DNA from: Bacteroides sp.
GTDB lineage: Bacteria > Bacteroidota > Bacteroidia > Bacteroidales > UBA7960
Direction of reading: 5' to 3'
Length of the DNA stretch: 64,000 nt
NCBI GenBank assembly: GCA_036351255.1
Contig: JAZBOS010000109.1
Coordinates: 64,039-128,038 of the forward strand
In this document: positions 44,187 to 47,306 of the stretch, one piece after another
Numbering within the stretch: the stretch's first letter is position 1
Layout: each line of letters opens with the position of its first letter
The notes under the pieces: model-generated
Database searches by the model: none
What the model was told of the DNA's origin: nothing
What the model saw: only the letters and a program-made list of their open reading frames with translations
Translations under genes and position numbers: made by a program

Positions 44187-47100
44187 TTATTTTCTGAAAC
44201 CAATTTCGCGCCGGGTATCCTCACCCGGCGCTTGTTTTTTATCAGGAGCTGCCTTCAGGATGTCTTCAGCGTGGATGGTGATAAACTCCTCATTAGAGAT
44301 ATCCTCAAGTTCGACAATTCGGTCCGACTGGTTCTGAATGGCTTTTTCGAAAAGGTTACGGGCCATGCGTCCATTTCCGAAGTGTCGGTCACGGTTTTGG
44401 AAGGCTTCTTCCATGATGCCCAGGACAGCTTGTTCTGCTTCGGGTGACAACAGGTAATTTTTGGCCTTGGCAATGCGACAGAAGATATCCTTCAACTCCA
44501 GTGGATTGTAGTCTTTGAATTCAAAGGTTCTTGAGAATCGTGATTGCAACCCGGTATTGGAGTCAAAGAAGTTCTCCATTTCTTTTGGATATCCTGCCAG
44601 AATAACGGCAAGGCGTTCGCGGTCATCTTCAATACGCTTAAGGAGGGTTTGGATGGCTTCGGGCCCAAAATCGCTTTCACCGCCTCCGGCCAGGGAATAT
44701 GCCTCATCGATGAAGAGAATCCCATCCATAGCAGAATCGATTACCTTGGTGGTTTTTTGGGCGGTTTCACCCACATAGCGGCCAACCAGTCCTGAGCGGT
44801 CAACCTCTACCACATGCCCCTTGGCCAGCAAACCCAGCGAGCGGAAGATCCTTCCCATCAGCCTGGCAACGGTAGTCTTCCCTGTTCCGGGAGGGCCAAC
44901 AAAAACAGAATGAAGCATGATGGGCTCAACAGGAAGATTGCGTTCCACGCGTTTTCTGGCCACTTTCATATGCTTGGCAAGGCGTGATACGTCTTCCTTT
45001 ACAGAATCCAGTCCAACGAGGTCATTCAGCTCATCCAGGATCGTTTCCAGTGGCACCTCTTTGTTGTCGTCGAAATCATGCTTCACCACTTCGGTGATGT
45101 CTTCTTCAATGATGTGCATAAGCTCATTGTCATTTACATCGGGGAGGTCAGCCAGCCTGAAGGCTTGCTGTGAGGTGACCTTCTCAAAAAGGTTACGGAC
45201 CAGGCGTGCGTTGCCAAAGTTGTTGTCCTTTGAGCGGAAAATGAAATCAAAATACCGTTCAAGTTTTGCTTCAGCTTCTTCGGTTAAATCGAACTGGTTT
45301 TTTTCGGCCATGGTTTTGAAAATGGCCAGGAGTTCATCGGGCTGGAAATCCTCAAAGTGAAAGAAATTCTTTACTCTTGATTCAAAACCGCTGTTGGAGG
45401 CAATGAGTTCTTTCATCTCCTCGGGATATCCTGCCATAAACACCACGAGGCGGTCGCGGTCAGCGTCCATACGTTTGATGAGGGTGTCAATGGCTTCCTG
45501 ACTGAAGTCGCTATTTGAGGAGGGCGTCAGGGCGTAGGCCTCGTCAATGAAAAGCACGCCGTCGAGGGCCGAATCAATGACCTTGTTTGTTTTGATGGCC
45601 GTATCGCCAATATAATTTGATACAAGTTGACTGCGATCTACTTCTACCAGGTGGCCCTTTTTAAGGATTCCCAACGATTTGAAAATCTGTGCCATTAAGC
45701 GGGCAACGGTTGTCTTCCCTGTTCCTGGCGAGCCTTCAAATACAGCATGCCAGGATTTTTGTCCACTTTCTATGCCCATTTCCTTGCGCCTCATCAGGAT
45801 CTTATGCTCCTTGAGCATTTTATTCACTTCCTGCTTGATTCGGGTCATCCCGATGAGGCCATTGAGCTCTCTGAGGGTCTCTTCAAGGCTTGCCTGAGAA
45901 TCCGCATCAATACCTGTATTGGATATTCCGGCAGTTTGGCCCGCTTGTTCTTTAATTCCATTCCCTGCAGCGCTTTTTGCCTTTTCCCGCTCAGCATCTG
46001 CAAGCATTTCCTTTAAATAATTATTAGATGGATACTTTTTCAGGCCAAGCTTATAAAAGAAGATGGCATTTTCAAAGTCTTCAAAATCATAACAAAGCGT
46101 TCCCAGCATTGACCAGTATTCTTTTTCTGAAGGTTCGTATTTCTGGAACAGCTTCTTCTTGGTAGAGACCACAATGTTGAATACTTCTTCGTCTTTTTTG
46201 TCTTCCAGGGAGGTAACATAATTTTCCAGGTAAGCCATTTCTTTTGGCATCAGGGTAAAAGCCTTTTTAAAACATGCCCTGGCCTTATCCATTTCTTCCT
46301 GAATGGAATAAATGAGCCCCATACGGTTGTGGGAAAGCGCAAAGGCAGGAGCTGTCTCTATCGCCTTCTTACAATATTTCAGGGCTTTGTCGTACTTTTC
46401 TTCCTGATAAAATTTATAGGCGGTATTGTCATAATCAATGGCTGTTTGGGGAATGCCGGCATAATCCGGATTCACCCCATCTTGTTCCTGCGGGTTCTCT
46501 GCCACTTCAGCAGCCATAGTCTGTGATTGCATTTGTTCCAGCTCCTCAATGGCTGCCTCAGCATTCCGCTGCGCCTTCAATTGTTCGAAGCCTTCCGGTG
46601 GTAATGACATCATTATGAACCAACGATCACCAACATAGTTTGCGAAACTGAGCCGGAAACCCTCCTTTAATTTCTCGCGGAAACCTTGCTCCGGGAAATC
46701 ATTGGCAGTAAACCAGTGTTGACCTTGAAAGGGCAGACCTTTGATGCCAATCAGCACATGCAGGTCGCGATCCCATAGACCTTTTCCATGAGCCAGTTGC
46801 CATACATCATAACCATCGTCCCAAGCCTGCTGAAGGCCTTGCTCGGGAAACTCCCTGGAGGTGGAAATTCGCTGTTCATGAATGCCGGTACCTTGGGAGC
46901 AGACTAACACCCATTGCTGTTGCCCATAGGAAATATTGGTGACAAAATACCCTTTACGGGCTAGTTTGTTGATGTCACTTTCGGGGAATTTCCGCCCAGT
47001 CACAATCTTTTGATTTCCATAAACTTTTTCGGGTGTGGAGAATACAACCCAAACATCATTTTGCCATGTGAGCCAGGTTATGGCATGCCCTTTATGAATG

Positions 47101-47306
47101 ATATCGTTTATTTCCTTTTCAGGAAATTCTGGATTGATTAGCCAGGATTGCTCTGCACTGCTGAAATCCAGTGCATTTGACATGACCCAAACGCTGTTGG
47201 CATAACAAACAAAACCGACAGGCTCATTCTTTTGCCAGAATTGCTTGTCAATATCAGATTGCGGAAAGATGGGGCCATTGGAAAAAGAAAAGCGGGATGC
47301 AAACAT
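44187..47306 (-). CDS. Multidomain protein: five N-terminal ~45-aa repeats + TPR region + two CbbX/SpoVK-type AAA+ ATPase modules
   Basis: The repeats are marked by (E/D/K)FPE..I......G......W.V ([32 protein letters not shown]). TPR-like helices span roughly aa 290-450. Walker A is [14 protein letters not shown] and [14 protein letters not shown]. Walker B is VLFIDEAY and ILFIDEAY. Confidence 0.85.

Follow-up and report, generated by a model that had tools for sequence, protein, structure and literature searches.

A Bacteroidales AAA+ protein with an N-terminal DUF7477 domain, TPRs and tandem SpoVK/CbbX/EccA-type modules, and its linked LamG-SH3 membrane protein gene

The 64,000-nucleotide window analysed here (positions 64,039 to 128,038 of contig JAZBOS010000109.1, GenBank assembly GCA_036351255.1) comes from a 95%-complete Bacteroidales metagenome-assembled genome (MAG), labelled G000 below, and carries two genes of interest: one for a 1039-amino-acid (aa) protein with an N-terminal DUF7477 domain, a TPR region and two AAA+ modules, and one for a 500-aa LamG-SH3 membrane protein. 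The domain DUF7477 is already catalogued, yet the ATPase/LamG-SH3 gene pair is conserved and undescribed, and we found no account of this module in the literature. The ATPase combines its architecture with intact ATPase sites and is genetically linked to the LamG-SH3 protein. An earlier reading of this DNA, made from its letters alone (the sequence-only reading), had described, with no strand given, an open reading frame (ORF) with five repeats, an acidic linker, TPRs, a Gln/Gly/Ser linker and two AAA+ modules, and we recovered every one of these elements (Table 1), the Gln/Gly/Ser linker at aa 448-470. A sequence scan detected neither a signal peptide nor a transmembrane (TM) segment nor any other hydrophobic stretch, which places the 1039-aa protein in the cytoplasm. 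Its TPRs are found by Pfam at aa ~290-440, with a TPR_1 match of 53.8 bits; alignment indicates that not all of the wider DUF7477-AAA+ family has this region and that it precedes DUF7477 in some relatives.

Table 1. Positions of the ATPase gene, its parts, the partner gene and neighbouring genes in the window.
Feature	Position	Strand	Basis or remark
Whole ATPase gene, DUF7477-TPR-AAA+-AAA+ protein, 1039 aa	44187..47306	minus	ORF translation; stop codon 44187-44189
DUF7477 domain, aa 1-237, five ~46-aa repeats	46596..47306	minus	Pfam PF24289; AF2 model; Foldseek
Acidic helical linker, aa 238-285	46452..46595	minus	sequence; modelled helix about aa 240-266
TPR region, aa 286-447, about 4 repeats	45966..46451	minus	Pfam TPR_1/TPR_2/TPR_8/TPR_14
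AAA+ module D1, aa 471-740	45087..45896	minus	Pfam, NCBIfam, alignments
AAA+ module D2, aa 750-1020	44247..45059	minus	Pfam, NCBIfam, alignments
Variable Pro/charged linker and tail RREIGFRK, aa 1021-1039	44190..44246	minus	sequence, family comparison
Candidate -7 promoter box TACATTTG	47340..47347	minus	34 nucleotides upstream of the ATPase ATG; sequence read
Partner gene, 500-aa protein	55225..56727	minus	homology, Pfam, hydropathy/charge scan
fadD-like AMP-ligase gene	42229-44157		convergent with the ATPase gene
queA	47447-48703		divergent from the ATPase gene
ORF upstream of the partner gene, 163 aa	56911-57402		RlmH-like (SPOUT methyltransferase) by eye

By profile and motif, both AAA+ modules belong to the SpoVK/CbbX/EccA clade. 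PF00004 (AAA) and PF17866 (AAA_lid_6) each match the protein twice, and the NCBIfam models SpoVK TIGR02881 (549.6 bits, cut-off 422.95), EccA TIGR03922 (492.8 bits, cut-off 466.65) and CbbX TIGR02880 (433.9 bits, under the cut-off of 459.25) each align over two stretches, the scores being sums over the two modules; both modules are complete, as had been proposed from the letters. D1 carries Walker A at G525-T533, the pore loop Y565-I-G, Walker B D588-E589 (in an LFIDEAY motif that begins at aa 585), AGY at 625-627, N638...S643-R644 and a lid with the sensor-2 motif GNAR701-LV-R704-N. The corresponding elements of D2 are Walker A at G804-T812, Y844-V-G, D867-E868 (LFIDEAY from aa 864), AGY at 904-906, N917...S922-R923 and a lid with GNGR980-MA-R983-N. 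The invariant arginine (R644, R923) sits six residues past N638 or N917, position +4 being E or Q. The sequence-only reading had asked whether the Walker B and sensor sites are intact in orthologues; they are, since Walker A and B, the Y-[IV]-G pore loops, the A-G-Y sensor-1 signature, N-x-G-x-x-S-R and the sensor-2 arginines are invariant both in 9 orthologues (70-81% identical overall) and in family members that are ~40% identical. Judged from these motifs, both rings seem fit for catalysis and for mechanical work.

What defines the SpoVK-EccA-like clade, in a recent survey, is a GY signature, an Asn preceding the arginine finger and the retention of sensor-2, and its members are presented there as chaperones that have a narrow set of clients, varied recruiting domains at the N-terminus and no peptidase link that is known (PMC11513918). 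The earlier suggestion of a substrate-recruiting remodelling machine agrees with this published view. The ATPase shares AAA_lid_6, AGY, the sensor-2 arginines, Y-[IV]-G and a variable N-domain with the clade, has an N..SR segment that may correspond to the Asn and arginine finger of the clade, and resembles EccA in having TPRs ahead of the motor. However, characterised clade members have one module whereas this protein has two complete modules per chain and a conserved C-terminal [IV]GF tail; DUF7477 does not appear among the N-domains that the consulted passages of the survey list (PMC11513918); and the known partners of the clade are the type VII secretion system, Rubisco and MurG, whereas the genetic partner here is a LamG membrane protein. 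The tandem arrangement itself is common: a search with aa 480-1039 retrieved multi-module SpoVK-like proteins in at least 7983 clusters at E<=1e-40. Nor is the protein an orphan, as it had been called, for the DUF7477-AAA-AAA family is scattered through Bacteroidales. SpoVK-like chains with 3-5 AAA+ modules and 1100-1680 aa (P0162-P0274) are also abundant in Ignavibacteria, Melioribacteraceae and Bacteroidota, where they are annotated merely as 'AAA family ATPase'.

That the protein is a functional EccA, CbbX or SpoVK orthologue is a reading that the exceeded SpoVK and EccA equivalog cut-offs and the EccA-like layout of TPRs plus AAA+ would invite, but we regard it as very improbable. The scores are summed over two modules and the N-terminal domain differs; no match to WXG100 (PF06013) or to RuBisCO_large was found in the 95%-complete host genome, and CbbX stays below its cut-off. 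SpoVK is described in the survey as specific to sporulating Bacillota, with a short ~40-aa N-terminal domain and a single module (PMC11513918), against a Bacteroidales host, a 470-aa N-terminal region and two modules in the present case. With fadD and queA as its neighbours in addition, we rejected orthology to all three. Because tandem modules pass the SpoVK (TIGR02881) and EccA (TIGR03922) equivalog cut-offs, automatic annotation risks misnaming such proteins in non-sporulating bacteria without type VII secretion.

The N-terminal region provides one feature that sets this ATPase apart from the characterised members of the clade. Five units, starting at aa 14, 61, 107, 153 and 204 (spacing 46-51 aa) and each closed by a W-hydrophobic strand, correspond to the five units of about 45 aa in the sequence-only reading. 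That reading could not assign them to a named family, but aa 1-262 match Pfam DUF7477 (PF24289) with 66.6 bits against a cut-off of 27. Aligned full five-repeat domains give the consensus Q-x-W-x4-FP-x3-I-x3-W-x2-G-y-x-I-T-x-l-a-Y-G-x-G-x-W-v-v-V-m-S, in which the W, Q and P positions are invariant and the 46-aa spacing is kept among relatives merely 25-30% identical. An AlphaFold2 model of aa 1-250 (built from six sequences) reached a predicted local distance difference test score (pLDDT) of 86.3 and a predicted TM-score (pTM) of 0.84, and DSSP assigns to it exactly 15 strands and 5 helices, E-H-E-E five times over, within aa 6-235, and then a helix of the linker at aa 240-249. Taken together, the PF24289 score, the W/Q/P invariance and the E-H-E-E model indicate that the repeats are not a product of chance. 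The question had been put whether they form a propeller or a solenoid; the model confirms the five repeats, and the predicted shape is instead a closed alpha/beta barrel.

A Foldseek search with this model returned 7tpu_A as the top and sole plausible PDB match (probability 1.00, E 9.4e-3). The superposition has a TM-score of only 0.43 and a root-mean-square deviation of 8.1 over 254 columns, a profile search of PDB sequences gave no sequence-level link between DUF7477 and 7TPU even at E up to 10, and Foldseek against viral models gave no convincing match. The matched structure is that of a polyglycine hydrolase (Fvan-cmp, Fusarium), whose N-domain consists of five quasi-identical E-H-E-E repeats of 44 aa arranged in a barrel; it was described as a novel fold, mostly bacterial, with a function that was not known, and substrate positioning or protein-protein interaction were proposed as its roles (PMC9912923). 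The two proteins are alike in having a five-repeat E-H-E-E barrel of ~44-46 aa units that is joined to an enzyme acting on a protein substrate. They differ in that the fungal protein, which is secreted, has a beta-lactamase-fold protease as its fusion partner, whereas the DUF7477-AAA protein is cytoplasmic and fused to an unfoldase.

Further, a HMMER search with aa 1-250 against 1.84 billion cluster representatives found 538 clusters at E<=1e-3, and all 149 relatives retrieved with this query match PF24289. The domains fused to DUF7477 in these 149 proteins include caspases (25), protein kinases (15, many of them with a TM helix ahead of the barrel) and SpoVK-type AAA+ modules (9), besides TPRs, matrixin, astacin and trypsin. 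As nearly all of these fused partners are protein-acting enzymes, a client-docking or ligand-binding role suggests itself, and DUF7477 is probably a client-docking module. A word-indexed homology search was less productive, yielding 2 proteins with the DUF7477 profile and 6 orthologues with aa 1-480, a query whose TPR words saturated the candidates. We presume from its repeat pattern that the PPKC domain of the plant MUT9-like/PPK casein kinases is a DUF7477 domain as well. PPKC is the non-catalytic part of the kinase and binds the substrate CRY2 in yeast two-hybrid assays (PMC5437284). If it is a DUF7477 member, it would be a precedent for client docking, although it is eukaryotic, nuclear and kinase-fused. 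Literature searches for DUF7477, DUF6232, PF24289 and PF19744 found no description. DUF7477 has no characterised function and an account of the operon was not found, and the interest that the sequence-only reading had tied to these two points holds.

Other DUF7477 proteins came to light along the way. In other Bacteroidota, an exported DUF7477 protein (L014, G175:C1, 1465-2868) has an N-terminal zincin-type HEIGHH motif, a protease-plus-barrel layout that echoes the fungal polyglycine hydrolase, and a second exported protein (L013, G083:C47, 946-2259) has C-terminal TPRs. DUF7477-CARDB-caspase proteins of 940-1064 aa are encoded at L050 (G489, 410-5984), L053 (G725, 4703-10592), L048 (G495) and L045 (G634). 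In G489 and G725 two genes for proteins of ~420 and ~346 aa precede the caspase gene, while in G495 a gene for a ~420-aa protein lies downstream; neither member of the G489 pair has a Pfam match. These loci are possibly another undescribed DUF7477 module.

Where the sequence-only reading saw no obvious partner genes, comparison with other genomes points to one. The gene for a LamG-SH3 polytopic membrane protein lies 3-27 bp upstream, on the same strand, of the DUF7477-AAA gene in six genomes (G594, G759, G466, G539, G658 and G656) that span at least four families, the G656 partner copy running off the contig start. These operon partners are ~550 aa long and comprise a signal peptide, Laminin_G_3, an SH3-like segment, a polytopic membrane domain and a CxxC...CxxC zinc ribbon. 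Three of the six genomes have a gene for a 120-aa DUF6232 membrane protein ahead of the partner gene. Metagenomic contigs add a DUF6232 / LamG-SH3 protein / DUF7477-AAA trio and a divergently transcribed pair in which the partner stands beside a three-module variant of the ATPase, and the partners in both cases align with the family profile over its whole length, at about 500 bits. Altogether, the partner and DUF7477-AAA+ genes adjoin in eight contexts outside the genus of G000, in two orientations.

A homologue of this partner is present in the window and is homologous to the operon partners over its full length (blastp E 1e-32); the sequence-only reading had listed this ORF separately, as a LamG/SH3b/polytopic protein. 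It has a signal peptide (aa 3-21), an extracytoplasmic Laminin_G_3/ConA-like domain at aa ~89-223 (Laminin_G_3 68.5 bits by Pfam) and an SH3-like segment, and a hydropathy scan places TM segments at about 328-346, 370-388 and 412-430, with two more in 438-479. Combined with the distribution of charge, this predicts that some 306 aa follow the signal peptide on the outer side, that a basic loop and a basic tail face the cytoplasm and that the loop between them, acidic and aromatic, lies outside. The ORF that precedes the LamG gene was considered as a DUF6232 candidate and discarded, since it resembles neither DUF6232 proteins nor the partner; the third gene of the trio is therefore absent at this position in this lineage.

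The two genes also share a distribution. Close orthologues of the ATPase occur in 3 of 11 species of the genus (G000, G005 and G009) and on a few metagenome contigs, always between queA and fadD, and a related-locus search with the orthologue alignment matched two MAGs. The partner gene shows the identical split: G000, G005 and G009 have it, and the remaining 8 species do not. Four further species of the genus have fadD immediately next to queA. Non-carriers also have the two slots unoccupied by these genes: the fadD|queA slot is without the ATPase gene in G006 and G010, and the accC|rlmH slot is without the LamG gene in G006, G003 and G010. In a fadD+queA tree the carriers G009 and P0007 have the non-carrier G006 as their sister, and G010 falls inside the carrier group. 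Since both nest among carriers, the two loci, 8 kb apart, appear to have been lost jointly at least twice. Beyond the genus, DUF7477 is present in 23 of 401 sampled Bacteroidales genomes, and 10 of these 23, G000 included, have DUF7477-AAA-AAA proteins of 989-1175 aa. Of the 401 genomes, only the 7 whose ATPase has an N-terminal DUF7477 gave full-length partner matches above 600 bits. All of these counts come from samples of genomes, many of them incomplete MAGs. The adjacency elsewhere, the co-occurrence in the genus and the joint absence in the non-carriers checked together show that the ATPase is evolutionarily tied to the partner.

The accC|rlmH slot holds a gene for a 422-aa thioredoxin/thioredoxin-reductase fusion in G006 (L069, G006:C36, 1817-3085) and, by spacing, in G003. 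In G009 (L067, G009:C35, 12819-14087) this gene coexists with the LamG gene, and it is absent from the window. Given that the thioredoxin fusion and the LamG gene both vary there, the slot is a small hotspot of gene gain and loss.

On balance, the 1039-aa protein is probably a client-specific double-ring (type-II) cytoplasmic AAA+ remodeller whose site of action is the cytoplasmic side of its membrane partner. By analogy with its relatives, it would assemble into a hexamer, with DUF7477 and the TPRs forming a client-docking platform. At the cytoplasmic face of the inner membrane the motor may engage the basic loop and the C-terminal (zinc-ribbon) tail of the partner or, alternatively, act on a client that the LamG protein presents. 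Extracellular binding by the lectin-like domain could in this way be coupled to ATP-driven unfolding or disassembly inside the cell, and the conserved [IV]-G-F-[RK] tail could serve as a docking peptide for a common downstream partner.

Several observations weigh against this interpretation. The link between ATPase and partner rests on gene position and co-occurrence, and in the window the two genes are separated by 8 kb of housekeeping genes. Unlike its operon homologues, the window partner is devoid of the C-terminal zinc ribbon, and its cytoplasmic loop has been shortened. Three weaker, distant partner homologues occur in genomes without a DUF7477 match (G035, G447 and G690), in contexts that end at contig edges. 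Conversely, in G032, G449 and G585, whose family members have an N-terminal TPR extension, the partner is absent nearby and no full-length copy was found anywhere in the genome; the neighbours of these ATPases are mutually unrelated (peroxiredoxin-like, a membrane protein, MltG-like). The tree is built on two genes with an assumed root, and related genomes are not independent. Finally, the full-length AlphaFold model of the ATPase (9 close orthologues; pLDDT 50, pTM 0.27) is too poor to use.

Some of these points would suit a stand-alone chaperone of a soluble cytoplasmic client, with the LamG link as mere co-inheritance. The gene is monocistronic here and lies, as the sequence-only reading had already seen, between a convergent fadD and a divergent queA, the latter followed by a methyltransferase gene and mnmC2. 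The octamer TACATTTG upstream of it is a candidate only, which we take to resemble the Bacteroidetes-type -7 consensus TAnnTTTG; as a sequence match it suggests that the ATPase gene has its own promoter. Three family members lack the partner, and CbbX and SpoVK act on soluble enzymes according to the clade survey (PMC11513918). Against such a chaperone stand the eight adjacencies, which are independent of one another and come in both orientations, the exact co-occurrence in the 401-genome sample and the joint loss of two loci 8 kb apart in separate branches, and we consider it the least likely of the readings apart from direct EccA, CbbX or SpoVK orthology.

An anti-phage or conflict system, in which invaders would be detected at the envelope by the LamG protein (with DUF6232) and the ATPase would be the switch or effector, seems to us unlikely too, if slightly less so. 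The patchy distribution with repeated joint loss would fit it, as would the fact that DUF7477 is most often fused to caspases and kinases, which belong to the conflict-system tool-kit of multicellular bacteria (PMC7159879), and that sister tandem SpoVK-like genes lie beside a DUF4062-NACHT-TPR STAND NTPase gene and beside Ser/Thr kinase genes. However, PADLOC matches the generic AAA+ part alone (IetA 65.8 bits, P-loop region only; TRIP13), and the NCBIfam IteA model NF042959, whose cut-off is 510 bits, gives 48.1 bits. The module has no nuclease, protease or other toxic effector, both genes lie amid syntenic housekeeping genes and not in a defence island or mobile element, and the distribution within the genus agrees with vertical inheritance followed by losses.

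A remodeller of this kind would matter because each solved SpoVK, EccA or CbbX case opened a specific piece of cell biology, namely Rubisco reactivation, type VII secretion and spore cortex synthesis. The gene pair is a further, undescribed case of this clade, in Bacteroidales, an order with major gut and digester bacteria among its members, and the LamG-SH3 membrane protein is a concrete candidate client or platform. For its part, the widespread and so far unexplained DUF7477 barrel, which bacterial caspases and kinases carry, which the N-domain of the fungal polyglycine hydrolase resembles and which the tail of the plant PPK kinases presumably contains, gains a defined cytoplasmic context in which its target could be sought.

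The extreme C-terminus gives a hint of what the motor might hand its clients to. The I-G-F tripeptide at aa 1035-1037 (nucleotides 44196-44204) is a candidate docking motif, and all ATPases with an N-terminal DUF7477 have x-[IV]-G-[FY]-[RK] 0-5 residues from the C-terminus, after a linker that cannot be aligned. The tail is kept in 13 of 18 members of the DUF7477-AAA family, one of which ends in IGYK, and in all four tandem SpoVK-like proteins that have an unrelated ~320-aa N-domain (LGF, LGF, VGF and IGF); among other multi-module SpoVK-like proteins it is found in 5 of 113, against a background of 3.4% per 15-aa window. Since the N-domains and the neighbours of these two subfamilies differ, the target of the tail should be common to both and should be neither the LamG partner nor the TPRs. 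Clp ATPases dock on ClpP through an (L/I/V)-G-(F/L) tripeptide (PMC8745299), and clpP is present in the host genome. The ClpX of the host (L072, G000:C46, 2073-3311) reads I-G-Y (...ANAIGYGVNK...) where the textbook docking loop is I-G-F. The four sister proteins belong to a subfamily represented by an 879-aa ATPase and found also in G018, G032 and G039, in which the ~320-aa N-domain has no assignment.

From these data it is conceivable, though doubtful, that the ATPase is the unfoldase of a new ClpP-dependent protease, its tail, held beneath the D2 ring by a flexible linker, docking into the hydrophobic pockets of ClpP as the IGF, IGL and VGF loops of ClpX, ClpA and ClpC do, and that clients picked by DUF7477 and the TPRs, possibly including the membrane partner itself, are degraded. 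Such a protease would refine the remodeller proposed above and would not exclude it. The retention of the tail past non-alignable linkers in both subfamilies, its rarity elsewhere, its fit to the docking consensus (PMC8745299) and the clpP gene in the genome favour it, as do the A-IGY-G loop of the host ClpX next to a family member ending in IGYK and the Y-[IV]-G pore loops in both rings. The type-II Clp/Hsp100 unfoldases ClpA and ClpC offer a close comparison, as they too have a double ring, an N-terminal domain for binding adaptors or clients and, on a flexible element at the exit side of the second ring, the (L/I/V)-G-(F/L) tripeptide. They differ in belonging to another AAA+ clade and in having the tripeptide in an internal loop; indeed, in known Clp ATPases the loop that holds it is internal to the last AAA+ module and not at the C-terminus, and the core of the present protein is of the SpoVK clade and not of the Clp/Hsp100 or ClpX type. 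A three-residue motif is by itself weak, clpP never adjoins any family member examined, the tail is absent from 5 family members, and the clade survey reports no peptidase association (PMC11513918).

If this line is followed further, DUF7477-AAA-AAA proteins and the sister tail-bearing subfamily may be ClpP-docking unfoldases that form, together with the LamG-SH3 protein (and DUF6232), a new envelope-to-cytoplasm pathway of regulated proteolysis in Bacteroidales, a scheme that we hold to be a little less likely still than ClpP docking as such. The SpoVK/EccA/CbbX clade would then have in them its first members coupled to a protease, and an outside ligand of the lectin domain would decide which cytoplasmic segment or client enters ClpP. 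Should the IGF tail dock on ClpP, a new entry among the ClpP partners would be needed, and the AAA+ clade would have to be described anew.

Two further arrangements of SpoVK-type ATPases were observed in Bacteroidales. The 879-aa tandem ATPase mentioned above is encoded at L038 (G014:C14, 8962-16158), where the gene of the DUF4062-NACHT-TPR STAND NTPase (1509 aa) lies directly upstream. Elsewhere at the same locus (2317-7740) and at L042 (G033:C520, 417-6233), a Ser/Thr kinase gene, whose product is membrane-anchored and 977 or 1150 aa long, precedes one for a SpoVK-type ATPase with a zinc ribbon, one degenerate and two intact SpoVK-type AAA+ modules. This pair is kept in two Bacteroidales families, with the kinases 38-39% and the N-regions of the ATPases 34% identical.

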